DNA from: Clostridia bacterium
Lineage (GTDB): Bacteria > Bacillota > Clostridia > Christensenellales > Aristaeellaceae
DNA: 14,092 nucleotides
Assembly (NCBI GenBank): GCA_045599485.1
Contig: JAZRWA010000022.1
Coordinates: 1-14,092 of the forward strand
Direction of reading: 5' to 3'
Every line of letters starts with the position of its first letter. The first letter of the stretch is position 1. Under the pieces are notes generated by a model, which did no database searches, had not been told where the DNA came from, and was given only the letters and a program-made list of their open reading frames with translations. The translations under genes were made by a program, and so were the position numbers. Below are positions 1-14,092 of the stretch, piece by piece.

Positions 1-1
1 G

Positions 2-352
2 CGTCTGCTCAGGCGTGTGGTGCGTGACTATCTGACCCGCGGCGCCAGCCCCGAAAGGACGCTTTCCATGTGGAAGAGCGTACGCGCCGGCGAGGAGAAA
101 TGGATCTTCCCCTATCAGGAGCAGGCGGATGTGATCTTCAATACCGCTCTGCACTATGAACTGCCCGTGATGCGGCTGTACGCCTATGAGCTGCTGGAGA
201 AGATCACGCCCGATTTCAGTGAGTATTATCTGGCACGGGAGCTGGTGCGCATGCTCAATTATTTCCTGCCCATGCCCAGGGAAGCGCTGGAGGAGATCCC
301 GCCGCTTTCCATCCTGCGTGAGTTCATCGGCGGGAATACGTTTTACGAGTGA
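2..352 (+). CDS. Uridine/nucleoside kinase family protein, C-terminal fragment (5' end outside window)
   Basis: The frame is open from the window edge (RLLRRVVRDYLTRGASPERTLSMWKSVRAGEEKWIFPYQEQADVIFNTAL...ILREFIGGNTFYE). From memory this resembles the conserved C-terminal part of long uridine-kinase-like proteins of Clostridia. TGA stop at 350-352, followed by a hairpin terminator. Confidence 0.75.
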   Translation, partial: RLLRRVVRDYLTRGASPERTLSMWKSVRAGEEKWIFPYQEQADVIFNTALHYELPVMRLYAYELLEKITPDFSEYYLARELVRMLNYFLPMPREALEEIPPLSILREFIGGNTFYE

Positions 353-398
353 GAGGATGCACCTGAGAAAAGGAAGATTTTAACAGGACAAAACAAAA

Positions 399-447
399 CC
401 CTTGTCTGGAGGAAGTTCAACTTCCATCAGCACAAGGGTGTTTTATG
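399..447 (+). terminator. Rho-independent terminator candidate of the kinase-like gene
   Basis: Imperfect hairpin CCCTTGT (399-405) / ACAAGGG (432-438) with inner GGAAGT/ACTTCC pairing, followed by TGTTTTAT. It starts about 47 nt after the TGA. Confidence 0.6.
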
Positions 448-479
448 ATATAGATTGCCCTTTCTCGGAAGGGGTCAAA

Positions 480-524
480 GGGGGAACCATGCTTTCCGGC
501 TTGGGAAAGCGTGGTTCCCCCTTT
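480..524. terminator. Long perfect-ish hairpin between convergent genes (likely terminator of the minus-strand methyltransferase gene, possibly bidirectional)
   Basis: 18-bp stem GGGGGAACCATGCTTTCC (480-497) / GGAAAGCGTGGTTCCCCC (504-521) with one G-U pair and a 6-nt loop. A TTT run follows it on both strands. It lies about 15 nt downstream of the minus-strand TAA at 536-538. Confidence 0.6.
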
Positions 525-535
525 ATATACTCTCC

Positions 536-1339
536 TTACCGCCGTCCCAGCTGCCAGAAGGCCACAGCGCCGGCGGCAGCCACGTTCAGCGAATCCACCC
601 CGTGCGCCATGGGAATCAGCACGGTGTAATCACAGCCGCGGATGGTTTCCTCGCGCAGTCCGTTGCCTTCCGCCCCCAGCACCAGCGCCAGACGCTCCTA
701 TGCCATCAGCCGCGCGTCGTCCACGGCAATGGAACGCTTCGTCAGTGCCAATGCCGCCGAGGCAAAACCCAATGTCTTCAGCTCTCCCGCCACATCGTTG
801 GAGGGCAGGTACGCCCAAGGTACCTGAAAGACCGTGCCCATGCTGACACGTACGGCACGCCGGTGCAGCGGGTCACAGCAGGAGGGGCTCAGCAGCACCG
901 CCTCCATGCCCAGCGCGGCGGCGGAGCGGATCAGGGCGCCGATGTTGGTAGCGTCCGTCACGGCTTCCAGCACGGCGACGCGGCGCGCGCCCCGGCATGC
1001 CTCTCCGGCGGTGCGTTCGGGCGGCCGCTTCATCAGACAGCGGATGCAGCGGTCCGGCATGCAGCCGAGGATGTCGCCCAGCAGCGCATCGGGTCCGGTA
1101 TATACCGGTACGCTGTCATCACAGCGGGCCAAAGCCTCTGCCGCCTGCCCCGTGATGTGCTTTTTTTCCATCATAAAGGCCACGGGGGTGAGCCCCGCGT
1201 CCAGCGCGTGCAGCACCACTTTGCCGCTTTCCGCCATGAAAAGCGCTTCCCGGGGGCGCTGCAGGCTGCGCAGCTGCGCGTCGGTGCGCCGGAAGGGCTC
1301 CAGCTCCGGGGCGTTCGCATCCTTTACTTCAATGATCAT
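536..1339 (-). CDS. TrmH/SpoU family RNA 2'-O-methyltransferase, 267 codons if the in-frame TAG at complement(698..700) is decoded
   Basis: The track ORF 698..1339(-) ends ...SIAVDDARLMA at a TAG. The same frame continues ERLALVLGAEGNGLREETIRGCDYTVLIPMAHGVDSLNVAAAGAVAFWQLGRR to a TAA at 536-538. SpoU motif 1 (LEAVTDATNIGALIRSAAALG) is upstream of the TAG; motifs 2 and 3 (LVLGAEGNGL, IPM..GVDSLNVAAAGAVAFW) are downstream. GGAGG RBS at complement(1345..1349), 5 nt before the ATG. Confidence 0.85.
698..700 (-). other. In-frame TAG codon inside the TrmH-family gene (candidate sense/recoded UAG)
   Basis: Minus-strand reading ...CTG ATG GCA TAG GAG CGT CTG GCG CTG GTG CTG GGG GCG GAA GGC AAC... 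= L M A * E R L A L V L G A E G N. There is no frame change. Confidence 0.8.
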
Positions 1340-1368
1340 GGTGTCCTCCGCGGTGTTGTTCTGCGCCG

Positions 1369-1397
1369 ATTGTAATGCCGTGCCGCTCCGCTGTCAA
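1369..1397 (-). promoter_or_regulatory. Sigma-70/SigA-type promoter for the TrmH-family gene
   Basis: Minus strand: TTGACA (complement 1392-1397), 17-nt spacer, TACAAT (complement 1369-1374). It lies about 30 nt upstream of the ATG at 1339. Confidence 0.6.
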
Positions 1398-1415
1398 GTG
1401 CGATGCAGTTTTTGC

Positions 1416-1444
1416 TTTTATTCCGTGGGGTTTTATAGTATAAT
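1416..1444 (+). promoter_or_regulatory. Possible promoter for the PucR-type regulator gene (good -10, weak -35)
   Basis: TATAAT at 1439-1444. Only a weak -35 (TTTTAT, 1416-1421) sits at 17-nt spacing; TTGCTT at 1412-1417 would need a 21-nt spacer. Located in the divergent intergenic region. Confidence 0.35.
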
Positions 1445-1487
1445 GGATAAAATGATGTTTTTATGCCCGTGAAAGGAGAAGCAAAGC

Positions 1488-2537
1488 ATGGAGCAATCCG
1501 TTCTGGATGAGATCGGCGGCATTCTTTCCTCTTTGGACAGCCGCGTGCTGCTGCTGGATGCGTCGGGCACTTGTCTGGCCCCGTCCGCGGGGGAAAAAAT
1601 AACGCTGCCCAGGCATTTATCCTTCGGCGGCGTGGCGGAAAAAGACGGCAGGCTGTTTTTTGCTTCCGCCCGGGAGCCGCTGATCATTGCCTCCGATAAA
1701 CAGAACGGCGGCGATGTGCCGCTGATGGCGCTGCGGCTGTGCGAAAGCCTGCTGACGCGCCGGCGTACGGAGGGCGAAGGAAGCTTTTGGTACCGCCTGC
1801 TGACGGGCACACTTTCCGCCGGATAGACCGAAGCGTTGATCCGTGAGAACGGCATTGAGGACGCGCTGCGGGCGGTCATGATCCTGCAATTGCCTGCTTT
1901 GAAACATGGCACGGCGCAGGAAATGCTGGAGGCCAACCTGCCGCTGACCCCGGGACACGATGTGCTGGTGCCGCTCGACAGCCGCACGGCGGCGCTCATC
2001 AAGCCCGTTTCGGCGGGAGACAGCCCGCAGGACCTGATGGAATACGCCGAGGCGGTGCGTGAAACGCTGCTCAGCGAGGAAGGCGAAGACGCTGTGATCG
2101 CCGTAAGCGACATCATCGGCGAAGCCGCCGCGCTGCATGCCGCCTTTCAGCACGCGGGCGAAGCCATGGAAACAGGCCGTACCTTCCGCCCGGAAATGCG
2201 GGTCTACGGCTATGACGCGCTGCTGCTGGAGCGCTTTCTCAGCGATATTCCGCCCGAGACAGCGGCACGCTACCACCAACTGCTGTTCAACCGCCGCACC
2301 GCACGTGTGCTGACGGAGGAGATCCTGGACACAGTCAGCATGTTTTTTGAAAAGGACCTGAACCTGTCGGACACGGCCCGGCAGCTGTACATCCATCGCA
2401 ACACGCTGGTATACCGTCTGGATAAGATCCAGCGGCTGACCGGTCTGGATCTGAGAAAGTTTGATGATGCCGTGACCTTCCGCATGCTGCTTGAAATGAA
2501 AAAATGCGCAGAGAAGGGAAAGCACCCTACTGCCTGA
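1488..2537 (+). CDS. PucR/CdaR-family transcriptional regulator (C-terminal PucR HTH), 349 codons if the in-frame TAG at 1824..1826 is decoded
   Basis: Track ORFs 1488..1826 and 1836..2537 are in the same frame (348 nt apart). They read ...YRLLTGTLSAG * TEALIRENGIEDALRAV... The C-terminus carries the PucR-type HTH (LNLSDTARQLYIHRNTLVYRLDKIQRLTGLDLR). RBS AAAGGAGAA at 1472-1480, ATG at 1488, TGA stop at 2535-2537. Confidence 0.8.
1824..1826 (+). other. In-frame TAG codon inside the PucR-family gene (candidate sense/recoded UAG)
   Basis: GCC GGA TAG ACC GAA GCG TTG ATC CGT GAG AAC GGC = A G * T E A L I R E N G. The frame is unchanged, and the DNA-binding domain is encoded about 600 nt downstream. 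Confidence 0.75.
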
Positions 2538-2552
2538 CGGAGGAAAACAAAC

Positions 2553-3767
2553 ATGAAAAAACGGTTTTTTGCCCTGCTTTTATGCCTGGTGCTGTGCTGC
2601 TCCGCGGCTTTGGCGGACAGCGTTTTCGGCAACAACGGCGTGTTTGGCGTGGGCGGCACGGTCACCATTACCCGGGCGGAATACGAGCGCCTCAAGCAGT
2701 ATGAAAAGCTGGACGAGGTGCTGCAGTATATTGAAGCCTACTATTACAAAGAGCCCGACACCGGCGACATGATGGACATGGCCATTCAGGGCCTGCTGGC
2801 CGGCTTGAATGACCCCTATACCTTCTATTATGACGCCGAAGCCTGGGCGGACATGTGGGAGGAGGAAGAGGGCGAGTACACGGGTATCGGTCTGCAGCTG
2901 CTGGGCAGCTATCTGGACTACACCGTGACCATCACCCGTGTCTTCCGTGATACCCCCGCCGAAAAGGTGGGGCTGAGAAAGAATGACCTGCTGGTGCGTG
3001 TGGAGGACATCACCGTGACCACCGAGACCATGCAGAACGCCGTCAATGTGATGCGCGGCAAGGTGGGCGAAAGCGTGGAGGTGGAGGTGTACCGCGACGG
3101 CGAATACCTGACCTTTACGGTCGAACGCGCCGCCATCCACACCAACAATGTGGATTGGTGCATGCTGGATAACAACGTGGGCTATCTGATCCTGTACCAG
3201 TTCTCCACGGAATCGCTGCTGCAGGATTTCAAGACCGCATTGAAGGACCTGGAGGCGCAGGGCGCCAGGAGCCTGGTGCTGGATCTGCGTGACAACCCCG
3301 GCGGCTGGGTCAATGACGCCGTCGGTGTGGCGGATGTTTTCCTGGATAAAAAACTGGTGGTCTATTCCCGTACCCGTGACCAGGAACGCACCGATGAGCA
3401 GTATACCAAAGCCGGGGCGGATGATATTCCGCTGGTGGTGCTGATCAACGGCTCCTCCGCTTCGTCCAGCGAGATCTTGTCCGGCTGTCTGCAGGATTAC
3501 GGCCGCGCCGTCATCATGGGCAGCCAGAGCTTCGGCAAGGGCGTCATGCAGTATGTGATCGGCCTGTCCGATAACAAGACGGGCATGCAGTTTACCTTCT
3601 GCGAGTACTTTACCCCCAACGGCAACAGCGTGCACGGCATCGGCATTACCCCGGATATCGCGGTGGAAATGCCCGCCGATCTGAAAAACAAGCTGTTTGA
3701 GGTAGGCGACATGGCCGACCCGCAGCTGGCGGCGGCATGGGAAGAGGCCGTGCGCCTGCAGCAGTGA
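2553..3767 (+). CDS. S41 family C-terminal processing (tail-specific) protease, exported
   Basis: 404 aa. Signal peptide MKKRFFALLLCLVLCCSAALA/DS, a PDZ-like region, the S41 serine motif (LINGSSASSSEILSGCLQD) and the FGKG lysine motif. GGAGG at 2539-2543, TGA stop. Confidence 0.9.
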   Translation: MKKRFFALLLCLVLCCSAALADSVFGNNGVFGVGGTVTITRAEYERLKQYEKLDEVLQYIEAYYYKEPDTGDMMDMAIQGLLAGLNDPYTFYYDAEAWADMWEEEEGEYTGIGLQLLGSYLDYTVTITRVFRDTPAEKVGLRKNDLLVRVEDITVTTETMQNAVNVMRGKVGESVEVEVYRDGEYLTFTVERAAIHTNNVDWCMLDNNVGYLILYQFSTESLLQDFKTALKDLEAQGARSLVLDLRDNPGGWVNDAVGVADVFLDKKLVVYSRTRDQERTDEQYTKAGADDIPLVVLINGSSASSSEILSGCLQDYGRAVIMGSQSFGKGVMQYVIGLSDNKTGMQFTFCEYFTPNGNSVHGIGITPDIAVEMPADLKNKLFEVGDMADPQLAAAWEEAVRLQQ

Positions 3768-3779
3768 CGGGAGGTTCAA

Positions 3780-4742
3780 GTGAAAAAACGGATATCGACC
3801 TTTTTGCTGCTGATGCTGCTTGTGTCGCTGCTGTGCCCGGCGGTGCTGGCGGATGAGGTGATTCCCGCCCATGATAAGCACGAACGCCCCGAGATCGAGG
3901 GCATGGGGGAGGACGGTTTTCTGACACAGGCGGAGGCGGAATTTGTGCTGGCCGATGCAGAAGAAGGCCTGTGGATGTATGTCAGCGATGCCCTGCGCAT
4001 TGAAATTGACCGCTACACCGCCTCCAACCGCAAGCTGATCTGGTACACCGCGCACATATGGCAAAAGGAAGGGGACGGCATGCACACCTTCCTGGCCGAC
4101 CCGGCGCATCCCTTCGGTCTAGCGCTGCTGGTGGAGGAAATTGCCCGGCAGTATCAATTGGTGTTTGCCATCAATGGTGACTTTTTTGAGGATCGTTACC
4201 GTGAGGGCGAAAAGATCGGCTGCGTCATCAAAAACAAAGTGGTCATCAACCGCTATGCGCAGGAACTGGATAACCTGCCCACGCTGGATGTGCTGGCGCT
4301 GTTTGAGGACGGCACCATGAAATGCTTTAGGGCGCGCAGCAACAGCGCGGACAAATATCTGGCCATGGGCGTGCGCGACACCATCTGCTTCGGTCCCATT
4401 CTGGTGTCCGAGGGCAGCATCAATATGAAGCAGCTGGAGGAATACGGCCGCTCCCGCGAGCCGCGCACCGCGCTTGGCATGGTGGAAAACGGACATTATG
4501 TTGCCATCGTCTGCGAGGGACGCTCGGAGGAGAGCGACGGCCTGCGCCTGAGTGAGCTGGCCCCCCTGATGCAGGCGGAGGGCTGTGTGGAAGCGCTCAA
4601 CCTTGACGGCGGTCAGACCTCGGTCATCAGCTTTATGGGCGAAAAGCTCAATGCCACCGGTACCTTCCATAACAGCTCCAGACCGCGCCGCGTGACGGAT
4701 ATCGTGGGCATTGGCGTAAGCGATCTGGTTTCCGCCGAGTAA
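3780..4742 (+). CDS. Phosphodiester glycosidase family protein (NAGPA / DUF2233-like), exported, paralog 1
   Basis: 320 aa, GTG start 5 nt after GGGAGG (3769-3774). Signal peptide MKKRISTFLLLMLLVSLLCPAVLA/DE. Family-typical motifs: REPRTALG...GHYVAIVCEGR and EALNLDGGQTSV. TAA stop. Confidence 0.8.
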   Translation: MKKRISTFLLLMLLVSLLCPAVLADEVIPAHDKHERPEIEGMGEDGFLTQAEAEFVLADAEEGLWMYVSDALRIEIDRYTASNRKLIWYTAHIWQKEGDGMHTFLADPAHPFGLALLVEEIARQYQLVFAINGDFFEDRYREGEKIGCVIKNKVVINRYAQELDNLPTLDVLALFEDGTMKCFRARSNSADKYLAMGVRDTICFGPILVSEGSINMKQLEEYGRSREPRTALGMVENGHYVAIVCEGRSEESDGLRLSELAPLMQAEGCVEALNLDGGQTSVISFMGEKLNATGTFHNSSRPRRVTDIVGIGVSDLVSAE

Positions 4743-4766
4743 ACAACAGAGGAGAAAAACAACCAT

Positions 4767-5711
4767 ATGAAAAAAGCGCTGATGGCGCTGCTGCTTTTGC
4801 TTTCGGTGTGCGGCGGCGCGCTGGCGGATGTGCCGGTGAGAGCCAATGAGCCGTGTGCCCGCCCCGAGGTGGAAAACCTGGGGGAGGATGGCTATCTGAC
4901 CGAAACGGATGAGCTTGTGTTCATCGATGAAACGGCGGGACTGTGGTACTATGTCAGTGATGAGCTGCGCGTGGAGATCGACCGCTATACGGCCTCCGAC
5001 CGCAAGCTGATCTGGTATGTGGCGCATCTGTATCAGAAAACGCCCACTGGTCTGCGTACCGCGCTGGCAAATGAAAAAAAGCCCTACGATGACCGCATGT
5101 GGGTGTATGATCTGGCTGAGAGGGAAAAGATGGTCTTTGCCACCAACGGCGATTATTTTGCCACCCGTCTGGATGAATCCGCCGGTGTGGGCATCGTCAT
5201 CCGTCATGGACGGGTCATCAGCTCCAAGGGCAAAGCGAGCAGCAAGATCCCCACGCGGGAGATCATCGCCATGTATGAGGACGGCAGCATGAAGTGCTAT
5301 GGCGCCAACGAATACAAGGCGTCCTCTCTGGCGGAAGCCGGCGTGCGTGATACGCTGTGCTTTGGCCCCATTCTGGTACGGGATGGGCAGGTGGAGACCA
5401 AACGCCTGGACGAGATGGGCTCCTCCCGTGAGCCGCGGTGCGCTATCGGCATGGTGGAGCCCGGCCATTATGTGGCCATCCTGACGGAAGGCCGTACGGA
5501 TGACTCGATCGGCGCACGTCTTTTGACGCTGGGCGATATGATGGCGGCGGAGGGCTGTGTGGAGGCGCTGAACCTGGACGGCGGACAATCGGCTGTCATG
5601 TGCTTCATGGGCAAAAAGATCAGCTCCACCGGGCATACTTCCACCAGCACCCAGAGCCGCAAGATGACCGACATTGTCGGCATCGGCTACAGTGAACTTG
5701 TAGGACAGTGA
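4767..5711 (+). CDS. Phosphodiester glycosidase family protein (NAGPA / DUF2233-like), exported, paralog 2
   Basis: 314 aa. Signal peptide MKKALMALLLLLSVCGGALA/DV. Collinear with the upstream paralog (EIDRYTASDRKLIWYVAHLY, REPRCAIGMVEPGHYVAILTEGR, AEGCVEALNLDGGQSAV). TGA stop. Confidence 0.8.
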   Translation: MKKALMALLLLLSVCGGALADVPVRANEPCARPEVENLGEDGYLTETDELVFIDETAGLWYYVSDELRVEIDRYTASDRKLIWYVAHLYQKTPTGLRTALANEKKPYDDRMWVYDLAEREKMVFATNGDYFATRLDESAGVGIVIRHGRVISSKGKASSKIPTREIIAMYEDGSMKCYGANEYKASSLAEAGVRDTLCFGPILVRDGQVETKRLDEMGSSREPRCAIGMVEPGHYVAILTEGRTDDSIGARLLTLGDMMAAEGCVEALNLDGGQSAVMCFMGKKISSTGHTSTSTQSRKMTDIVGIGYSELVGQ

Positions 5712-5713
5712 AT

Positions 5714-6892
5714 ATGAAAAAAATGCTGATGTATGCCGTGCTGCTGCTGACGCTGCTGATGACGGCGGCGTGTGCAGAGACGGCGGCGGAGCGTACCGCC
5801 TCCTGCACATTCAAGCTGGGAAAAACGGCTTTGACACAGAAGGAACGCGGCAAGCTGCTGGACAGGGATTATTCCACCCATTATGATATCGCGAGCCGCA
5901 AAACACTGACCATCGAAAGCGAAAAGCAGCTGGGCGGCATGTACCTGCAGATCTTTGATGTGGTGCGCGCGCTGACCATGGAAGTGAAAACCAACGGCGA
6001 ATGGCAGGAGTACTGCGTCAATCCCCAGCATCTGAGCGACTGGTACGCTTTCCCGGATAAGACCACGGCAGTGCGCATTTACAACGCCGATAAGGAAAAC
6101 AAGCTCAAGCTGGCGGAAGTGACCCTGTACGGCCCCGGGGACAAGCCCGAAAAGGTACCGCAGTGGATCGATCTGGAGAAGTGCGACCTGATGCTTCTGG
6201 CGACGCATCCCGATGACGATCTGCTGTGGTTCGGCGGCCTGATGCCCACCTACGCGGGGGAAAGGGGCTACAAGGTGCAGGTGGTGTACATGGTGCCCAC
6301 CGGCGGACTGCGCAAGCTGGAAATGCTGGACGCCCTGTGGACCTGCGGCGTCACGGCTTATCCCGGCCTGCTCAATCTGCGCGACCAGCGCGGCAAAAAC
6401 CTCAGTGAGCAGTACTCCCTGTGGGGACAGAAGACCGTCACCACCAAGGTGGTGGAGGCCATCCGCCGCTATAAGCCGTAGGTGCTGGTCACGCATGGTC
6501 TGGGCGGTGAATACGGACACCCCGGTCATAAGGCCGCGGCGGATACCGTGACGCGCGCCGTCGGTTATGCCGCGGATAAAAGCAACCGCCCCGCCTCAGT
6601 GGAAAAGTACGGTGTGTGGCAGGTCAAAAAGGTCTATCTGCATGAGTACAGCAAAAATCAGATCGAGATGGACTGGCATGTGCCGTTGGAAGCCTTTGGC
6701 GGCAAGGACAGCCTGACCGTCGCGCAGGAGGCCATGCTCTGCCACGCCAGCCAGGTCAAGGGCGGCTGGATGGTGGAGGACCACGGCAAGCATGATAATA
6801 CGCTTTTCGGTCTTTACAGCACCACGGTGGGTGAGGACATCGAGAAGAATGATTTTATGGAAAATATCGTCCTGGAGAACAATACACCGTAA
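5714..6892 (+). CDS. PIG-L/LmbE family deacetylase with lipoprotein-type signal and extra N-terminal domain, 392 codons if the in-frame TAG at 6479..6481 is decoded
   Basis: Track ORFs 5708..6481 and 6482..6892 are contiguous in the same frame: ...VVEAIRRYKP * VLVTHGLGGEYGHPGHKAAA... The PIG-L motif LLATHPDDDLLWFGG is upstream of the TAG and the HP(G/D)H motif is downstream. The likely start is ATG 5714 (MKKMLMYAVLLLTLLMTAAC, lipobox-like); GTG 5708 is an alternative. TAA stop at 6890-6892. Confidence 0.8.
6479..6481 (+). other. In-frame TAG codon inside the PIG-L deacetylase gene (candidate sense/recoded UAG)
   Basis: TAT AAG CCG TAG GTG CTG GTC ACG CAT GGT = Y K P * V L V T H G. It sits inside the conserved 'R.xKP-x-VvvTH' stretch of the family. 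Confidence 0.8.
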
Positions 6893-6898
6893 CGCATG

Positions 6899-6928
6899 GA
6901 AAGGGAGTCCGGATGAGGGCTCCCTTTC
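6899..6928 (+). terminator. Stem-loop after the PIG-L gene (possible terminator or mRNA-end structure; lacks a clear U-tract)
   Basis: GAAAGGGAG (6899-6907) pairs with CTCCCTTTC (6920-6928), extendable by TCC/GGG. It starts 7 nt after the TAA. It is followed by TGACAAAC, which is not T-rich. Confidence 0.4.
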
Positions 6929-6967
6929 TGACAAACAGGATTTGAACATTTCTTGCTCGGTTGTTAT

Positions 6968-6996
6968 TTGAAATTTTTTTCGGGAGAGTATATAAT
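6968..6996 (+). promoter_or_regulatory. Sigma-70/SigA-type promoter for the glycosyltransferase gene
   Basis: TTGAAA (6968-6973), 17-nt spacer, TATAAT (6991-6996), in an AT-rich intergenic region about 30 nt upstream of the ATG at 7027. Confidence 0.55.
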
Positions 6997-7026
6997 AGAA
7001 AAAAGACCGAAAAAAGGAGGTGCACG

Positions 7027-8298
7027 ATGGAACCAAGGATCAGAACAGCTTTGCTGAACGACTCTTTTCCGCCGCAGATCGACGGCGTGGCCAACGCGGT
7101 GATCAATTATGCCTCGCTGCTGCATGGCCGCGGGGATGATGTCATGGTGATCACGCCGGCCTATCCCGGTGTGGAGGATCATTATGATTATGAGGTGCTG
7201 CGCTATTCCAGTGTGGACACCACCAAGATCATCGGTTATCGTGCCGGTTACCCTTTTTCGGCTTCCGCTGTGCAGCGGGTGGTGGATTTTGCCCCTGATA
7301 TTCTGCACACGCATTGCCCCGTCTCTTCGCTGCTGATGGCCCGCGTGGTGCGGTAGAGGACCGGTGCGCCCATTGTGTTTACCTATCATACCAAGTTTGA
7401 TATCGATATCCGCACCGCCATCAAAAGCAAGGCACTGCAGGACAGCCTGATCCGCGCCATTCTGTGGAACATTGAGGGCGCCGATGAGGTATGGACGGTC
7501 AGCCGCGGCGCGGGAGAGAATCTGGAATCCATCGGCTATCAGGGCAAGTGGCGCGTGATGGACAACGGTGTTGATTTTGCCCGCGGTCACGCCTCGATGG
7601 AAAAACAGAACGAGATCAGCCGCCTGCATAACCTGACCGATCACGCACCGGTGTTTTTGTTTACCGGCCGTCTGCGCTGGTACAAGGGCATCCGCATCAT
7701 TCTTTAGGGTCTGGCCAAGGCCAAAGCCCGCGGCGCCAAGTTTCATATGCTGTTTGTGGGCGATGGCAGCGACCGCGGTGAGATCGAGGAGCTGGCGCAA
7801 AAGCTGGGGCTGACCGATCAATGCGTCTTTGTGGGCGCGGTGCAGGATCGTGAGCTGCTGCGGGCGTATTACAGCCGTGCCGATCTGTTCCTGTTCCCGT
7901 CTACCTTTGATACCAACGGCATCGTGGTGCGCGAGGCGGCCGCCTGCGGTCTGGGTGCCGTGCTGGTCAAGGGCAGCTGTGCCGCCGAGGGCATTACCGA
8001 TGGACAGAATGGCATCCTCATCGGTGAAAATGCCGACAGTCTGTGCGCGGCGGTGCTGTTTGCCTGCTCCCACCGCAATGAAGTGCGGCAGGTCGGCCTG
8101 CATGCGGAGAATGAGATCTATCTTTCCTGGGAGGATTCGGTGGCGCGGGCTCGTACCCGTTATGCCGAGCTGCTGGAGGAGCGCAAAGCAAACCCGCCGG
8201 AAAAGCGGCATGATGCCTTTCCTTTCCTGTCCGACATTGTGGAGGGCGCCGGCCGCCTGCAGCGGTGGCATCGCCTGCTGAACGCCAAGCTGAAGTGA
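7027..8298 (+). CDS. Family 4 (GT-B) glycosyltransferase, 423 codons if the two in-frame TAGs (7354..7356, 7705..7707) are decoded
   Basis: Track ORFs 6961..7356, 7375..7707 and 7747..8298 all share one frame. They read ...CPVSSLLMARVVR * RTGAPIVFTYHTKFDIDI... and ...GRLRWYKGIRIIL * GLAKAKARGAKFHMLFVGDGSD... The N-terminus is GT4-like (LNDSFPPQIDGVANAV). The C-terminal Glycos_transf_1-like domain has FPSTFDTNGIVVREAAACG. AAGGAGG at 7013-7019, ATG at 7027, TGA stop at 8296-8298. Confidence 0.85.
7354..7356 (+). other. In-frame TAG codon #1 inside the GT4 gene (candidate sense/recoded UAG)
   Basis: GTG GTG CGG TAG AGG ACC GGT GCG CCC ATT GTG TTT ACC TAT CAT = V V R * R T G A P I V F T Y H. No frame change. 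Confidence 0.8.
7705..7707 (+). other. In-frame TAG codon #2 inside the GT4 gene (candidate sense/recoded UAG)
   Basis: ATC ATT CTT TAG GGT CTG GCC AAG GCC AAA = I I L * G L A K A K. It lies in the 'KG(l/i)xxLlxAl' helix that opens the C-terminal Rossmann domain. Confidence 0.8.
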
Positions 8299-8328
8299 TT
8301 CCGCTTCAATAAACAATCATCAAAACAG

Positions 8329-8361
8329 GCACCTTTTGCGATCGGGCAAAGGTGCTTTTTG
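8329..8361 (+). terminator. Rho-independent terminator of the glycosyltransferase gene
   Basis: GCACCTTTTGC (8329-8339) pairs with GCAAAGGTGC (8346-8355) with one bulged T, followed by TTTTTG. Confidence 0.8.
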
Positions 8362-8381
8362 CTTGCGGCGGCATTTTTGCG

Positions 8382-8414
8382 CAAAACAAAAATCCTTGAG
8401 GAAATCTCAAGGAT
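8382..8414 (-). terminator. Rho-independent terminator of the tRNA-Ser pair
   Basis: Minus strand: ATCCTTGAG-ATTTC-CTCAAGGAT (9-bp stem, 8392-8414) followed by TTTTGTTTTG. It begins 4 nt after the tRNA 3' CCA. Confidence 0.8.
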
Positions 8415-8418
8415 CTTG

Positions 8419-8510
8419 TGGCGGAGAAGGAGAGATTTGAACTCTCGCTGCCGTTATCCAGCACTACTCCCTTAGCAGGGGAGCCCCTTCGGCCTCTTGG
8501 GTACTTCTCC
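8419..8510 (-). tRNA. tRNA-Ser (anticodon GCU), class II with long variable arm, CCA encoded
   Basis: Minus strand folded by hand: GGAGAAG-TA-CCC..GGG-G-CTCCC-CTGCTAA-GGGAG-(20-nt variable arm)-GAGAG-TTCAAAT-CTCTC-CTTCTCC-G-CCA. The anticodon loop CU-GCU-AA reads AGY. Confidence 0.9.
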
Positions 8511-8532
8511 ATCGGTCGGTAATCGGCAAAAC

Positions 8533-8621
8533 TGGCGGAGAGAGAGGGATTCGAACCCCCGGTGCCTTTCGACATCACCAGTTTTCAAGACTGGCGCCTT
8601 AAACCGCTCGGCCATCTCTCC
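8533..8621 (-). tRNA. tRNA-Ser (anticodon UGA), class II with long variable arm, CCA encoded
   Basis: Minus strand folded by hand: GGAGAGA-TG-GCC..GGC-G-CCAGT-CTTGAAA-ACTGG-(variable arm)-GGGGG-TTCGAAT-CCCTC-TCTCTCC-G-CCA. The anticodon loop CU-UGA-AA reads UCN. Confidence 0.9.
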
Positions 8622-8659
8622 GTACCGGCTCGATAGCCTGTCTGCCAATGTACTGATAA

Positions 8660-8688
8660 AGTATAGCAGTTTTTTTCCCTGTTGTCAA
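8660..8688 (-). promoter_or_regulatory. Sigma-70/SigA-type promoter for the tRNA-Ser pair
   Basis: Minus strand: TTGACA (complement 8683-8688), 17-nt spacer, TATACT (complement 8660-8665). It lies about 40 nt upstream of the tRNA 5' end at 8621. Confidence 0.6.
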
Positions 8689-8764
8689 TGCCCGTTCGCT
8701 AATTTCTTTTGAGGCGCGGGGGAAGGGAAAACGCGGCTTTTTTTTCGCAAAATGCCCATAATTA

Positions 8765-8794
8765 TTGACATAATACGGTGTTTTATCCTATAAT
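8765..8794 (+). promoter_or_regulatory. Sigma-70/SigA-type promoter for prfC-typA
   Basis: TTGACA (8765-8770), 18-nt spacer, TATAAT (8789-8794). A small hairpin TGTGGC-AAC-GCCACA (8802-8816) sits just before the RBS GGAAGGAGGG. Confidence 0.65.
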
Positions 8795-8831
8795 AACTGA
8801 TTGTGGCAACGCCACAGGAAGGAGGGCACTT

Positions 8832-10421
8832 ATGCTCGCAGAGGAAGTAGCCCGCAGAAGAACATTTGCTATTATCTCCCATCCCGACGCCGGCAAAACC
8901 ACATTGACCGAAAAACTGCTGCTGTACGGCGGCGCCATCCGCCAGGCCGGTTCCGTCAAGGCCCGCAAGGCAGAACGCCACGCGACCAGCGACTGGATGG
9001 AGATCGAAAAGCAGCGCGGCATCTCCGTTACCTCCAGTGCCATGCAGTTCTCCTTCAACGGTTTTGATATCAACATTCTCGATACCCCCGGCCATCAGGA
9101 CTTTTCCGAGGATACCTACCGCGTGCTGGTGGCAGCGGACAGCGCTGTGATGCTCATCGACGCCGCCAAGGGCGTGGAGGAGCAGACCATCAAGCTGTTC
9201 AAGGTGTGCCGTATGCGCGGCATTCCGATTTTTACCTTTGTCAACAAGATGGACCGTGCCGCCAAGGATCCCTTCGCCCTGATGGACGAACTGGAAAACG
9301 TGCTTGGCATCCACGCCTGCCCCATCAACTGGCCCATTGGCACCGACGGCGATTTTCAGGGCGTGTATCACCGTGATACCCGCATGATCGAATTGTATTC
9401 CGGCGGCGATCACGGCAAGAACAAGGCGCAGAAGACCGATGTTTCTCTGGACGATCCCGACCTGGGAACGCTGCTGGAAAAGCACTACATCAACCGCCTG
9501 AATGACGAGATCGAGCTGCTGGACGAGGCCGGCGACGATTTTGATCTGGAGGCCGTGCGCGAAGGCAGGCTGACCCCCATGTTCTTTGGCAGCGCCGTCA
9601 CCAACTTCGGTGTGGAGCCTTTCCTGGAGCGGTTCCTGTCCTACACCACGCCGCCCCTGCCCCGCGAGAGCAATGAGGGCTGGGTGCAGCCCGATGATGA
9701 ACGCTTCAGCGGCTTCATCTTCAAAATTCAGGCCAACATGAACCCCGCCCACCGTGACCGTCTGGCCTTCCTGCGCATCGTCAGCGGCCAGTTCACCAAA
9801 GGCATGACGGTGTGGCATTCCGGCACCGGCAAGGAGATCCAGGTCAAGCAGCCGCAGCAGTTTATGGCAGATGAGCGTGAAGGCATCGAAACGGCCTGGC
9901 CCGGCGATATCATCGGTCTGTTCGATCCCGGTATTTATCATCTGGGCGACACGCTGTGCGTGGGCCGCAAGATCCGCTTCCAGAAGATCCCCGTGTTTGC
10001 GCCCGAGCATTTTGCCCGTGTGCGTCCGCTGGATTCGATGAAGCGCAAGCAGTTTGTCAAGGGCATCATGCAGCTGAGCGAGGAAGGCGCCATCCAGACC
10101 TTCCGCCGCACCGAGACCGGCATTGAGGATTTCCTTGTCGGCGTGGTCGGTGTGCTGCAGTTTGATGTGCTGACCTACCGCCTCAAGAGTGAGTACGGTG
10201 TCGATCTGGTACTGGAGCAGTTGCCCTTCCGCTATGTGCGTTGGGTGACCGCCACCGAGATCCCCGTGCCCGACCTGAAGCTGACCAGCACCTCCGGCCG
10301 TGCTTTTGACGCCGAGGAGCGGGATGTACTGCTGTTTGAAAACGAGTGGAGCATCCGTCTGGCACAGGAAAACAACAAGGGCCTGGAGCTGGCCGAACTG
10401 GCTCCCCGCGAGATCTACTGA
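8832..10421 (+). CDS. prfC: Peptide chain release factor 3 (RF3), translational GTPase
   Basis: 529 aa starting MLAEEVARRRTFAIISHPDAGKTTLTEKLLLYGGAIRQAGSVKARK...DWMEIEKQRGISVTSS...DTPGHQDF..NKMDR. This is the characteristic RF3 N-terminus with G motifs, and the length is RF3-like. ATG 8832 lies 5 nt after GGAAGGAGGG. TGA stop at 10419-10421. Confidence 0.9.
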   Translation: MLAEEVARRRTFAIISHPDAGKTTLTEKLLLYGGAIRQAGSVKARKAERHATSDWMEIEKQRGISVTSSAMQFSFNGFDINILDTPGHQDFSEDTYRVLVAADSAVMLIDAAKGVEEQTIKLFKVCRMRGIPIFTFVNKMDRAAKDPFALMDELENVLGIHACPINWPIGTDGDFQGVYHRDTRMIELYSGGDHGKNKAQKTDVSLDDPDLGTLLEKHYINRLNDEIELLDEAGDDFDLEAVREGRLTPMFFGSAVTNFGVEPFLERFLSYTTPPLPRESNEGWVQPDDERFSGFIFKIQANMNPAHRDRLAFLRIVSGQFTKGMTVWHSGTGKEIQVKQPQQFMADEREGIETAWPGDIIGLFDPGIYHLGDTLCVGRKIRFQKIPVFAPEHFARVRPLDSMKRKQFVKGIMQLSEEGAIQTFRRTETGIEDFLVGVVGVLQFDVLTYRLKSEYGVDLVLEQLPFRYVRWVTATEIPVPDLKLTSTSGRAFDAEERDVLLFENEWSIRLAQENNKGLELAELAPREIY

Positions 10422-10439
10422 TAGAAAGTGTGAAACTGC

Positions 10440-12266
10440 ATGATTCGTTCTGATATCCGCAACATTGCGATTATCGCCCACGTTGACCACGGCAAGACCT
10501 CCCTGGTCAACGAAATGCTCAAGCAGGGCGGCGTTTTCCGTGCCAATCAGGAGGTGGCTGACCGCGTCATGGACTCCAACGATCTGGAGCGCGAGCGCGG
10601 CATCACCATTCTGTCCAAAAACACGGCGGTGCACTACGGCGATGTCAAGATCAACATCGTCGACACCCCCGGCCACGCCGACTTTGGCGGCGAGGTGGAG
10701 CGCGTGCTCAAAATGGTGGACGGCGTGCTGCTGCTGGTGGACAGCTTTGAAGGTCCCATGCCGCAGACCCGCTTCGTGCTGTCCAAGGCGCTGGCGCTGA
10801 ACCTGCCCGTGCTGATCTGCATCAACAAGATCGACCGTCCCGACGCCCGCTGCGGCGAGGTGGTGGACGAGATCCTCGATCTGCTGATCGACCTGAACGC
10901 CGATCCCGAAACGCTGGAGCGCCCCATCCTGTATGCTTCTGCCCGCAAGGGTACCTGTACGCTGGATCTGGAGCAGCCCGGCACCGACCTGCGTCCGCTG
11001 TTTGAAGCCATCCTCAAGTACATTCCCGCCCCCGAGGGCGAGATGGATGGCCCTGCGCAGGTGCTGATCTCCACCATTGACTACAGCGAATACGTGGGCC
11101 GTATCGGCATCGGCCGCATCAGCCGCGGCAGCCTGAGATCCGGTCAGATGGTGGTGCGCTGCAACTATCTGGATGACAAGGTGACGCCCCCGTGGCGCTT
11201 GACCGAGCTGAGCACCTTTGACGGCCTCAAGCGTATCCCGACCGATCAGATGGCCATGGGCGATATCGTGGCGCTGACGGGTCTGCAGGATATCAGCATC
11301 GGTGATACGGTGTGTCAGCCCGATACGGTGGAGCCCCTGCCCTTTGTGACCATCAGCGAGCCCACGGTGACCATGACCTTCTCGGTCAACGATTCGCCCT
11401 TTGCCGGCCGCGAAGGCCAGTTTGTGACGAGCCGTCACCTGCGTGCCCGTCTCTATCGTGAACTGCAGACCGATATGTCCCTGCGCGTCAAGGACGGCGA
11501 AACGCCCGATTGCTTTGAGGTGTGCGGACGCGGTGAGCTGCATCTGTCCATTCTGATCGAGACCATGCGCCGTCAGGGCTATGAGTTCCAGGTGTCCAAA
11601 CCCGAGGTCATCTACAAGGAGATCGACGGCGTATCCTGCGAGCCCATTGAGCGCATGGTGGCGGATGTGCCCTCCGCTTATGCCGGCGCCGTCATCGAAA
11701 AGATCGGCCGCCGCCGCGGCACGCTGGAAAGCATGGACGGCACCGACCGTGTGCGCCTGGAGTTCCTGGTGCCCAGCCGCGGACTGTTTGGCTACCGCAG
11801 TGAGTTTTTGACCGATACCCGCGGCGAAGGCGTGATGAGCTCGGTATTTGAAAAGTACGAGCCCTTCCGCGGCGACATTCCGCACCGCGCTGTGGGCGCC
11901 CTGATCGTGCACGAAACGGGCGAGACCACGACCTATGGTCTGTTCTACGCGCAGGAGCGCGGCACGCTGTTCATGGGCAATCAGGTGCCTGTGTACGCCG
12001 GTCAGATCTGCGGCGCAAGCAGCCGCCCCGGCGATATCCCCGTCAATGTTTGCCGCAAAAAGCATGTCAACAACATCCGCAACAGCTCTGCCGCCGAAGA
12101 CAGCATGCGCCTGGTCAGCGTGCATCCGCTGACGCTGGAGGAGTGCCTGGAGTTTATCGACAGCGATGAGCTGCTTGAGATCACGCCCAAGACCCTGCGC
12201 ATGCGCAAGCGTGTGCTGAGCCATGAGCAGCGCATGAAGAACGCTGCCCGCGGCATCAAGTGCTGA
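10440..12266 (+). CDS. typA: Translational GTPase TypA/BipA
   Basis: 608 aa. [24 protein letters not shown]..., [37 protein letters not shown], and a C-terminal BipA-type domain. TGA stop. Confidence 0.92.
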
Positions 12267-12868
12267 CGCCGCTGCTTTCCGCCATAGGCATAGCAGTTTG
12301 CCTGCCGCTGTTTATGCGGCTGAAAAGAAAGGCAAACGTGCCGATGGCTGCGGTGCTGGCAGCCAAATGCGGCGGCACGGCGATGGCGGCGCTGATGGCC
12401 CTTCAGGGTGCGCTGCGGCTGAACACCGCGGGAGCATGGCTGATGTTTGCCGCCGCAGTGGTGTGCGTCGTTGCCGATGGGGTGCTGCATGTGCGCTTTT
12501 TTGCCGGCGGCATCCTGTTTGCCCTGGGGCATGTGCTGTACATGATCTCCTTCTGTTTGCGGGGATTGCCGGGCTGGCAGAGCGCTGTGATGTTTGCGCT
12601 GCTTGCCGCGTCCGCGATGGCGTTTATCCGCATACAGAACGAAAAGCCGCAGCCCTTCATTGTGCCCTACGCGCTGGTGCTGTGCCTGATGACCGCCATG
12701 TCCTTTTCAAGAGGTCCCCTGTGCTTTGCCGGGGCGCTGCTGTTTGCCTTTTCGGATGGCATGCTGCTGTGGCGCATGGAAGGGCATCACAGTGAAGCCT
12801 CCGACTGGGTCGCCATGGGCAGCTATTACGCCGCGCAGTATTTGCTGGCATTGTCGCTGCTACGGTGA
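12260..12868 (+). CDS. YhhN-family (lysoplasmalogenase-like, TMEM86-type) integral membrane protein
   Basis: About 202 aa, multi-pass hydrophobic, with YhhN-like motifs (ILFALGHVLYM, GALLFAFSDGMLLW). The GTG start at 12260 overlaps the typA TGA (GTGCTGA). An internal ATG start at about 12314 cannot be excluded. TGA stop. Confidence 0.65.
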   Translation: MLTPLLSAIGIAVCLPLFMRLKRKANVPMAAVLAAKCGGTAMAALMALQGALRLNTAGAWLMFAAAVVCVVADGVLHVRFFAGGILFALGHVLYMISFCLRGLPGWQSAVMFALLAASAMAFIRIQNEKPQPFIVPYALVLCLMTAMSFSRGPLCFAGALLFAFSDGMLLWRMEGHHSEASDWVAMGSYYAAQYLLALSLLR

Positions 12869-12886
12869 AAAAGGGGCAAAAAAGAC

Positions 12887-12916
12887 TTGTCAAGGAACCA
12901 CTTTGTGTGGTATAAT
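12887..12916 (+). promoter_or_regulatory. Sigma-70/SigA-type promoter (extended -10) for rplS
   Basis: TTGTCA (12887-12892), 18-nt spacer ending in TGG, TATAAT (12911-12916). It leaves a leader of about 95 nt before the rplS ATG. Confidence 0.55.
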
Positions 12917-13014
12917 TACCCTTGCGTAAACGGATGGTCCGCTTTCGGACAGCAACGGTCTGTACCTGACCGGTCCGGAATGAACATCTATGAGGGAAGG
13001 AGGAACTATTCAAA

Positions 13015-13365
13015 ATGAGCGAAATTATCAAGAGCATTGAAAATGCGCAGCTTCGTACCGATCGTCCCGCATTCAACGTTGGCGACACCGTGCGTGTGCA
13101 GGTCAAGGTTGTTGAAGGTACCCGCGAGCGTCTGCAGGCGTTCGAAGGTGTTGTGATTGCCAAGCGCAATGGCTCCTGCCGTGAGACCTTTACGGTCCGC
13201 CGCGTGAGCTACGGCATCGGCGTGGAACGTACGTTCCCGCTGCATAGCCCCCGTGTGGACAGCATTACTGTTGTCCGTAAGGGCAAGGTGCGCCGCGCCA
13301 AGCTGTATTATCTGCGTGGTCTGCAGGGCAAGGCTGCCAAGATCAAGGACATCACCCGCGAATAA
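13015..13365 (+). CDS. rplS: 50S ribosomal protein L19
   Basis: 116 aa: [111 protein letters not shown]. This is a canonical L19. GAAGGAGG RBS, TAA stop. Confidence 0.95.
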
Positions 13366-13382
13366 TCAAAGGTCGTCCTTTC

Positions 13383-13417
13383 AGAGGAAGAGGAGCAATC
13401 CTTTTCCTCTTTTTTTC
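13383..13417 (+). terminator. Rho-independent terminator of rplS
   Basis: AGAGGAAGAGGA (13383-13394), GCAA loop, TCCTTTTCCTCT (13399-13410). 12-bp stem with one G-U pair, followed by TTTTTTC. Confidence 0.85.
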
Positions 13418-13447
13418 TCAGTGGAGTATCTTGAGGAGGTTCAGTTG

Positions 13448-14092
13448 ATGTATAAAAGAATGATGGTTTTGCTGTTGGCACTGCTGCTGTTTGGCACAGC
13501 GGCTTTGGCGGACAGTGATGCTTCCATTGAGTTTCGCTCTGTTCCGTGGGGAACATCGGTAATGGAAACCTGTGCGCGGATCTTGCAGGCGGCAAAAGAC
13601 GGCAATACGCTCACTGCGGAAGCGATGGCAGCGAATAGCGTGGAAGGCGCCACGTTCCTTTCTGTGCTGACCGACTGGAAGGGGGATATGGTGCCTGTGC
13701 CAATGATCGCACAGGGACCGTGTTTCAAGCTGGTTGCCACAGACCGTGTGAGCCTGAAGATGGCCGGGCATGATGTTGACACCCTGTGGCTGGGTTTTGT
13801 CAGGGAGCAGGGCGAATGGAGCCTGGCGACGGTACTGATCGGCCTGAAAGCCGGCAGCGGTACCGATGCACAGTTTGAGGATCTGTCCGCAAAGCTGACC
13901 CAAGTGTATGGCGACAGCCATGAGAAGAACGGTTATGCCTGGTGGGAAGGAAAGGACAGCACCATGGTGGGGCTGGTGGCGCAAAACAGGGACGCCTGGT
14001 ATATGAACGCATTGAGCGCGGATGCCTCCCTGTGCTATGTGAATGTGCTGATGTACGCGAAAGTGTACAGCATGGAGGCGGTGGAAAACATG
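13448..14092 (+). CDS. Exported hypothetical protein, N-terminal 215 codons (3' end outside window)
   Basis: Translated by hand: ATG 13448 lies 8 nt after GGAGG (13435-13439). MYKRMMVLLLALLLFGTAALA/DSDASIEFRSVPWG... is open with no stop to the window end, which is why it is missing from the ORF track. Typical Sec signal peptide. No family recognised. Confidence 0.7.
   Translation, partial: MYKRMMVLLLALLLFGTAALADSDASIEFRSVPWGTSVMETCARILQAAKDGNTLTAEAMAANSVEGATFLSVLTDWKGDMVPVPMIAQGPCFKLVATDRVSLKMAGHDVDTLWLGFVREQGEWSLATVLIGLKAGSGTDAQFEDLSAKLTQVYGDSHEKNGYAWWEGKDSTMVGLVAQNRDAWYMNALSADASLCYVNVLMYAKVYSMEAVENM

Follow-up and report, generated by a model that had tools for sequence, protein, structure and literature searches.

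Glutamate as the very probable meaning of in-frame UAG codons in a Clostridia lineage that has lost release factor 1

What does the codon UAG mean to a bacterium whose genes are crossed by it in frame? The question is raised by a stretch of 14,092 nucleotides from an uncultured Clostridia bacterium of the gut (positions 1 to 14,092 of JAZRWA010000022.1, assembly GCA_045599485.1; contig C22 of the genome; the window of this study), in which five in-frame TAGs lie within four genes, those of a SpoU/TrmH-family RNA methyltransferase, a PucR-type transcriptional regulator, a PIG-L/LmbE-family deacetylase and a GT4 glycosyltransferase. From the sequence comparisons presented here, UAG is very probably a rare sense codon for glutamate, and no longer a stop, both in this genome (G000) and in its sister species (G001). 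G000 is a metagenome-assembled genome (MAG) of 2.13 Mb with 56% GC, fragmented into 117 contigs, 82% complete and with 1.7% contamination. It was compared with G001 (JAKSQG01), a species of the same genus with ~91% DNA identity and, on our reading, itself recoded; with G007, a congener that contains release factor 1 (RF1), uses the standard code and shares ~64% amino-acid identity; and with G192, a species of the family that stands outside this genus (CALCTW01, an uncultured Clostridia MAG). The share sampled was about one third for G001, one quarter for G007 (~700 kb) and one tenth for G192 (257 kb), and every genome involved is an incomplete MAG.

The use of TAG within genes extends over the whole of G000. 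With TAG as sense, 1929 genes are called, 350 of which hold a total of 472 in-frame TAGs. They are found on 96 of the 117 contigs, including those that carry prfB, the glutamyl-tRNA synthetase (GluRS) gene, the site of the prfA deletion and the gene of a tRNA with anticodon CUA, and they are evenly distributed along genes with no enrichment at C-termini and only a weak strand skew (270 vs 202). Reading TAG as sense raises the coding density from 0.864 to 0.882 and the mean gene length from 282 to 324 amino acids; the same treatment of the congener G007 brought no gain in either measure. Nor did coding density gain in G000 when TAA was treated as sense, UAA being the stop of 886 genes, and a code of the table 30/31 type, with UAA and UAG both for glutamate, is not what this genome has.

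The continuation of open reading frames (ORFs) past TAG is far beyond chance, as 56% of those ended by TAG go on in frame, with coding potential, for 50 codons or more; after TAA or TGA only 11-13% do so. In the comparison of G000 with G001, nonsynonymous differences stand to synonymous ones in a ratio of 0.31 before the first TAG, 0.25 after it and 0.27 in genes that have none, and of 12 when a wrong frame is read as a control; the parts downstream of TAG are therefore translated in frame and under purifying selection. TAG makes up ~1.1% of the glutamate codons and it is 13 times less frequent in the quartile of genes with the strongest codon bias than in that with the weakest, the behaviour expected of a rare codon that depends on a single tRNA gene.

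The factor that would stop at these codons has been lost. Of the genes for RF1 and release factor 2 (RF2), prfA and prfB, only prfB was found in G000, and no match exceeded the prfA cut-off in G000 or G001. Among the 16 other species of the genus, G001 alone is likewise without a prfA-level match; prfA-level scores were seen in 14 of 14 other congeners, 12 of which exceed the curated cut-off, the matches of the remaining 2 being truncated where their contigs end. Five congeners (G005, G007, G008, G011 and G012) have the order lepA-prfA-topB, and on the 77-kb contig C35 of G000 lepA and topB are separated by a gap of 17 bp with no prfA, G001 being collinear across the junction. Since this junction is intact on a 77-kb contig, the absence of prfA is not an assembly gap: the gene has been cleanly deleted between lepA and topB in both species.

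Other components of termination can be placed beside this result. The gene of release factor 3, prfC, lies in the window (8832-10421, forward strand) with typA directly downstream, and has been kept, free of TAG, despite the loss of RF1. A transfer-messenger RNA (tmRNA) is encoded on contig C47 (82-430, minus strand); its tag, called by ARAGORN as AARCPKALTALASSVIDVRNWPA and flagged 'Tag not identified', reads by eye as (A)DNNSYAFAA followed by TAA, so that the odd call was dismissed as no anomaly and the tag fits termination by RF2 only. Elsewhere in the family, G018 (genus g3, 79% complete) gave no match to the prfA model even at the RF2 level, probably through incompleteness, and the pattern search described below found no glutamate-type tRNA(CUA) in it.

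To which amino acid, then, is UAG assigned? Over 108,180 codons aligned between G000 and G001, the partners of TAG are TAG (24), GAG (33), GAA (17), CAG (8), CAA (1) and others (9). Glutamate is thus the partner at 50 of the 68 differing TAG sites (74%), and since ordinary glutamate codons that differ between the two genomes have a synonymous partner in 71.5% of cases, TAG acts like a glutamate codon. When each candidate amino acid is scored by log-likelihood against its own observed distribution of partners, glutamate is ahead of glutamine by 79, of aspartate by 113 and of lysine by 160. The more distant G007 leads to the same residue, its 53 columns opposite TAG (E 27, D 9, A 6, Q 3, others 8) matching the profile of glutamate columns (E 0.58, D 0.085, Q 0.07, A 0.066), with glutamate ahead of aspartate by 40 and of glutamine by 63.

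The first-pass annotation of the window had shortlisted glutamine, glutamate, lysine and aspartate, had judged that the window by itself could not decide between them and had proposed genome-wide statistics for UAG. That judgement was sound, as genome-wide data were needed, and the codon-pair comparisons against G001 and G007 decide for glutamate, one of the residues listed. Its prior in favour of glutamine proved wrong here, the statistics giving glutamate and the tRNA(CUA) being of the glutamate type. It had also named the lack of any consistent amino acid at UAG columns as a sign of random nonsense mutations or errors; a single consistent residue was found instead, glutamate, by a margin of at least 40 log-likelihood units over any other.

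Because UAG appears to be a rare glutamate codon throughout G000, the five TAGs of the window are best read as ordinary glutamate codons in four intact genes. Their positions and neighbouring residues were confirmed, and each of them is bridged either by one Pfam domain or by two halves of a single architecture. The SpoU/TrmH-family methyltransferase gene (536..1339, minus strand, 267 codons, stop TAA) has one TAG, at codon 214 (698..700, minus strand, A-*-E), within the SpoU_methylase domain (residues 121-261); the codon is GAA in G001 and GAG in G007, and the column in 13 relatives holds E 5, A 3 and five singletons. In the PucR-type regulator gene (1488..2537, forward strand, 349 codons, stop TGA), TAG is codon 113 (1824..1826, forward strand, G-*-T), upstream of GGDEF_2 and HTH_30 domains; both G001 and G007 have GAG, and glutamate occupies the column in 15 of 15 orthologues. 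The PIG-L/LmbE-family deacetylase gene (5708..6892, forward strand, 394 codons, stop TAA) carries TAG as codon 258 (6479..6481, forward strand, P-*-V) inside the PIG-L domain (residues 162-284), in the motif RRYxP[E/D]VxVTH; the codon is GAT in G001, and 35 homologues and paralogues of the genus give E 25, D 8, A 1 and R 1.

Two TAGs fall in the GT4 glycosyltransferase gene (7027..8298, forward strand, stop TGA), whose frame is open from 6961 with a probable ATG start at 7027, orthologue matches starting at query residues 22-27, and whose product has the domains Glyco_transf_4 (40-208) and Glycos_transf_1 (217-373). Residue 132 in the numbering of the 6961 frame (7354..7356, forward strand, R-*-R) is TAG in G001 also and glutamate in 12 of 12 RF1-containing congeners; residue 249 in the same numbering (7705..7707, forward strand, L-*-G) is GAA in G001 and shows E 10 and D 3 in 13 relatives. 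Pooled over relatives, glutamate makes up 67 of the 88 residues at the five sites, and the 12 complete genes of the window stop at TGA (8) or TAA (4) and never at TAG. The earlier view that the TAGs occupy hydrophilic positions, not hydrophobic, Trp or Cys ones, is borne out, the aligned residues being acidic. That the sites are poorly constrained holds only for the methyltransferase (E in 5 of 13); it fails for the other four, as the invariant columns of PucR and of GT4 residue 132 and the conserved motif of PIG-L illustrate.

A decoding tRNA is at hand. G000 encodes a single-copy tRNA with anticodon CUA (C50:8748-8823, 76 nt, ARAGORN) that scores 55.5 bits against the Rfam tRNA model and stands alone in an AT-rich spacer with a terminator-like hairpin downstream. 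It is 100% identical in G001 and was not found in 39 other relatives. Its D-arm, GUCU/AGGAC (G10 U11 C12 U13 opposite G22 G23 A24 C25), forms U11-A24 and U13·G22; the variable loop has 4 nt, GAAC, with A46 and position 47 missing; the discriminator is G73; and the anticodon loop is CUCUAAA, against CUCUCAA in the resident tRNA-Glu(CUC). All of its closest counterparts in other genomes are tRNA-Glu(CUC); it has 66-72% identity to tRNA-Glu(CUC) genes (66% to the resident one) and 53-55% to tRNA-Gln genes. The typing of the tRNA that had been called for thus gives a Glu(CUC) type, neither glutamine- nor pyrrolysine-like. An origin from a syntenic tRNA-Glu gene found no support, the orthologue of the flanking gene in G007 having no tRNA beside it and the identity to the resident tRNA-Glu(CUC) being so low. 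An exact search with the 20-nt anticodon arm returned, from genome contigs, only G001 and a chance non-tRNA match, and nothing from viral contigs.

How this tRNA would be charged is less straightforward. The tRNA-Glu identity set of bacterial GluRS, known from the Escherichia coli literature, is present in its augmented D-helix part (U11-A24, U13·G22 together with A46, no position 47); the set also calls for U35 and C36 in the anticodon and for a G1-C72 pair, whereas this tRNA has A at position 36 and G1·U72 as its first pair. Because the full set is not there, it is from the column statistics that we infer charging by GluRS. A second, dedicated GluRS was rejected, as G000, like its congeners, has one copy, which lies at C71:20815-22275, and so was a non-discriminating GluRS combined with GatCAB, as a true glutaminyl-tRNA synthetase (GlnRS) is encoded beside GluRS, at C71:22285-23994, and no gatB was found.

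Several observations weigh against the reading of UAG as glutamate. The GluRS of G000 retains R364, the equivalent of Arg358 in Thermus thermophilus, an arginine that according to Sekine et al. in 2001 reportedly reads C36, and the enzyme therefore offers no explanation for an acceptance of A36. No change was seen in the C36-reading residue of GluRS, no duplication or striking lineage-specific change of the enzyme was found in G000, and the changes that it has in common with G192 are only conservative (I266V, D296E and V408I). GlnRS is present in G000, and tRNAs with a CUA anticodon are prone to mischarging by GlnRS in E. coli; with its G73, G2-C71, G10 and weak 1-72 pair, the tRNA(CUA) may allow some glutamine insertion at UAG. 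Glutamine partners are over-represented in the comparison with G001, at 13% against the 5% expected for glutamate codons. G000 and G001 are only 82% and 74% complete, the genes were called with a home-made codon-usage model by iterative training and dynamic programming, and it is from sequence that we infer the expression of the tRNA, its charging by GluRS and the presence of glutamate in protein. The glutamine excess is not present in the comparison with G007 (6% against 7%) and can be explained by the single-transition path from TAG to CAG.

These points bear on the rival explanations in different ways. That UAG is sense but read as glutamine, or as a mixture of glutamate and glutamine, through charging of the tRNA(CUA) by GlnRS as in supE-type suppression or in phages with TAG for glutamine, is improbable. 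Such a meaning would suit the genuine GlnRS adjoining GluRS, the rank of glutamine as second commonest partner in G001 (9 of 68 sites) and the features of the tRNA (G73, G2-C71, G10, weak G1·U72) that partly resemble GlnRS identity elements, yet it fits worse by 79 and 63 log-likelihood units in the two comparisons. If TAG meant glutamine, its one-transition synonym CAG should dominate, and CAG is found 8 times against 33 for GAG; glutamate is fixed, or nearly so, in three of the five columns of the window, and the tRNA is only 53-55% identical to the tRNA-Gln genes of the genome. Quite improbable too is an ambiguous UAG, translated as glutamate part of the time and otherwise leading to stalling or termination, with rescue by tmRNA or weak recognition by RF2, so that TAGs would act as dampers of expression. 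The deletion of RF1, a selection downstream of TAG as strong as elsewhere and the occurrence of TAGs in long housekeeping genes, at any position along the gene, all speak against it. Its supports are the rarity of TAG (1.1% of glutamate codons, with the 13-fold fall to the most biased quartile), the single tRNA(CUA) gene found and the presence of tmRNA, and avoidance in highly biased genes is typical of any rare codon.

A fragmented MAG of 117 contigs, with the completeness and contamination given above, invites the thought that its TAGs are nonsense mutations of pseudogenes, sequencing or assembly errors, or DNA of a recoded phage or other contaminant binned with the genome. This explanation is effectively refuted, and its probability is close to nil: 24 TAG sites are shared with the independently assembled G001, the 96 TAG-bearing contigs include those of prfB, GluRS, the prfA deletion and the tRNA, the window itself carries prfC, typA, rplS and tRNA-Ser, purifying selection persists downstream of TAG and the aligned residue is consistently glutamate. 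Pyrrolysine, or another non-canonical residue, is likewise effectively refuted and closer to nil again. The sole point in its favour, the label 'tRNA-Pyl' given by ARAGORN, derives from the anticodon alone; no PylS was found in G000 (the best match reached 23.9 bits where the cut-off is 178 bits), the cloverleaf of the tRNA is canonical and of the glutamate type, without pyrrolysine tRNA architecture, and TAG aligns with glutamate in ordinary proteins and not in methylamine methyltransferases.

The reading of UAG as glutamate gains a wider frame from a second lineage of the same family. Run over a sample of 401 genomes of the family, a pattern for the glutamate-type tRNA(CUA) gave matches in G000, G001 and G192 alone. 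The tRNA of G192 (C59:7799-7874; 1494-1569 of locus L112) is 72% identical to that of G000 and scores 53.5 bits against the Rfam tRNA model. In the congeners of G192 (G021, G106 and G154), prfA directly follows prmC; it is absent from this place on the 83.5-kb contig C132 of G192 (74561-78584), and no prfA-level match was found genome-wide. The 257 kb sampled contain 14 in-frame TAGs, several within long conserved genes, and glutamate is the aligned residue in 5-6 of the 8 informative cases. G192 shows the same three signs, tRNA(CUA), prfA loss and in-frame TAGs at glutamate, and is read as a second recoded lineage. The two tRNAs(CUA) also have in common states that the resident tRNA-Glu(CUC) does not have (A26, the U31-A39 pair, A38 and G44), which could reflect either a shared ancestor and transfer or convergent adaptation to the efficient reading of amber codons. 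As a separate observation, all 13 TAG-containing ORFs at loci L113-L132 of G192 lie on the minus strand of their contigs, although the genes as a whole divide 128 vs 101 between the strands, a bias that is probably due to operon clustering and chance.

Over 185,579 species genomes, the pattern otherwise matched only an Anaerolineae MAG and an archaeal site that is not a CUA anticodon. The Anaerolineae MAG, from a different phylum, carries a glutamate-type tRNA(CUA) (DAOTVV010000020.1; L232 4380-4455), and the fliS gene beside it seems to be closed by a TAG, immediately ahead of a fliD in the same frame. This genome may thus not be recoded, and a tRNA(CUA) alone is therefore no proof of recoding. 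Two IMG/VR phage contigs of low GC (36%) carry identical glutamate-type tRNAs(CUA), 74% identical to that of G000 and with the anticodon arm CGGTCTCTAAAA in common with it: IMGVR_UViG_3300024486_001176 (L228 5532-5605) and IMGVR_UViG_3300031994_000011 (L229 2625-2698), the latter of 172 kb. Such phages could have been the donor of the tRNA, or could be phages matched to the code of their host.

A plausible course of events can be proposed. With the gene of RF1, the sole factor reading UAG, deleted, RF2 terminates at UAA and UGA, and UAG would be decoded by the tRNA(CUA), a dedicated molecule of the tRNA-Glu(CUC) type encoded once in the genome and presumably charged by the single GluRS via the glutamate identity set in its augmented D-helix. 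In this order, a glutamate-type tRNA would have gained, or arrived with, the CUA anticodon, prfA would have been deleted, and TAG would have become a neutral synonym of GAG; most TAGs would arise from GAG via a single G-to-T change, tolerated as synonymous. In the RF1-containing G007, TAG makes up 24 of the 622 stops (3.9%), so that the ancestor would have had few TAG stops to fix, and this rarity was likely a preadaptation for freeing the codon. Of the TAG sites of G000 and G001, 24 are shared and 35 and 33 private, about a quarter being common, and GAG partners of TAG outnumber GAA 2:1 though GAA is the commoner codon; the few shared sites and the excess of GAG fit a recent and continuing gain of TAG codons.

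The genomes compared form a gradient of TAG density, from RF1-containing congeners with 3.9% TAG stops, through G192 with ~1 TAG per 18 kb, to G000 and G001 with ~1 per 4.5 kb. We tentatively suggest, at somewhat less than an even chance, that UAG for glutamate is a natural bacterial code that originated two or more times, or was passed on with a transferred amber-suppressor tRNA of the glutamate type, perhaps from phages, inside a single family of gut Clostridia whose standard-code members already make scarcely any use of TAG as a stop. As part of the same tentative reading, the clade may be a living series of early stages of 'codon capture'.

Set against known codes, this combination has no counterpart that we could find. 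Full-text literature searches returned no natural reassignment of UAG in a bacterium, and we found no paper that describes UAG for glutamate as the genetic code of any bacterium. According to Shulgina and Eddy (2021), all known bacterial code changes reassign UGA (PMC8629427), and a 2026 paper on UGA for tryptophan in Eggerthellaceae likewise describes bacterial cases with UGA only (PMC13462651). Like G000, the bacterial UGA codes (table 4, UGA for tryptophan, in Mycoplasmatota, some endosymbionts and Eggerthellaceae; table 25, UGA for glycine) convert a stop to sense across the chromosome, with loss of the cognate release factor and a tRNA of matching anticodon. G000 differs in the codon, UAG, in the factor lost, RF1 and not RF2, in the amino acid, glutamate, and in its genome, which at 2.1 Mb or more and 56% GC is not a small or AT-rich one.

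The same meaning is known from eukaryotes. UAG encodes glutamate and UAA lysine in the ciliate Oligohymenophorea sp. PL0344 (PMC10553269), and UAR is glutamate in Blastocrithidia nonstop (PMC12153298). Other ciliates read UAG as leucine or as glutamine. The eukaryotic codes with UAG for glutamate (PL0344, the peritrich ciliates of table 30 and Blastocrithidia nonstop) also rely on a glutamate-type suppressor tRNA(CUA). They are nuclear, with a single eRF1 and a UAA that is also reassigned or ambiguous, whereas in G000 UAA stays a stop and a discrete factor gene has been deleted. Borges et al. are said to have described TAG-recoded gut phages with 'code 15', TAG for glutamine (crAss-like, Lak and others). 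With these, G000 has in common the codon, the animal-gut habitat and suppressor tRNA(CUA) genes; they are phage genomes in which TAG means glutamine, often in late genes only, whereas G000 is a cellular chromosome with TAG for glutamate in housekeeping genes, and neither glutamine columns, nor a glutamine-type suppressor tRNA, nor a phage genome was found in it. The pyrrolysine system of some Clostridia, Deltaproteobacteria and methanogens also makes UAG sense through a tRNA(CUA); it comes with PylS and PylBCD, a distinctive tRNA and an RF1 that is usually kept, none of which was found in G000. RF1-free E. coli (C321.deltaA, RFzero strains and 'Ochre', PMC11903333) resemble G000 in the removal of prfA and the assignment of UAG to a suppressor tRNA, but are synthetic, with TAG stops recoded by design, whereas the G000 case is natural, in a genus already poor in TAG stops.

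The remainder of the window calls for only brief description. With 59% GC, it holds 13 genes, one of them leaving at the right end: a uridine-kinase-like C-terminus, the SpoU/TrmH methyltransferase (minus strand), the PucR-type regulator, an S41 protease, two NAGPA phosphodiester glycosidases, the PIG-L deacetylase, the GT4 glycosyltransferase, two tRNA-Ser genes, prfC, typA, a YhhN protein, rplS and a hypothetical protein. The two NAGPA paralogues stand in tandem and are followed by the PIG-L deacetylase (3804-6892); the PIG-L family is expanded genus-wide, with up to 6 copies per genome, frequently in tandem. Between two convergent genes lies an intergenic repeat (360-547) that forms a strong hairpin (GGGGGAACCATGCTTTCC...GGAAAGCGTGGTTCCCCC); other contigs of G000 and G001 carry numerous copies of it, 75-96% identical, and it looks like a repetitive extragenic palindromic (REP)- or terminator-like dispersed element. 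Two long open frames on the minus strand, one of 1179 amino acids antisense to prfC-typA (8685-12224) and one of 1076 amino acids antisense to the S41 and NAGPA genes (2580-5810), have no Pfam match and were dismissed as GC-driven artefacts.

The reassignment of UAG has so far been a matter of phages, organelles, eukaryotic nuclei and engineered RF1-free E. coli, the natural stop reassignments described in bacteria being those of UGA. If true, the reading proposed here, UAG for glutamate, would extend the list of bacterial code tables by one, from a GC-rich gut bacterium with a genome of free-living size, and the route engineered by synthetic biologists would be one that also occurs in nature. 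Annotation with table 11 truncates or splits ~18% of the genes of G000, and estimates of completeness and of pseudogenes for such MAGs are therefore biased. Graded close relatives would allow models of codon capture to be tested against those of an ambiguous intermediate, and the compatibility of codes between phages and their hosts in the gut deserves a second look.

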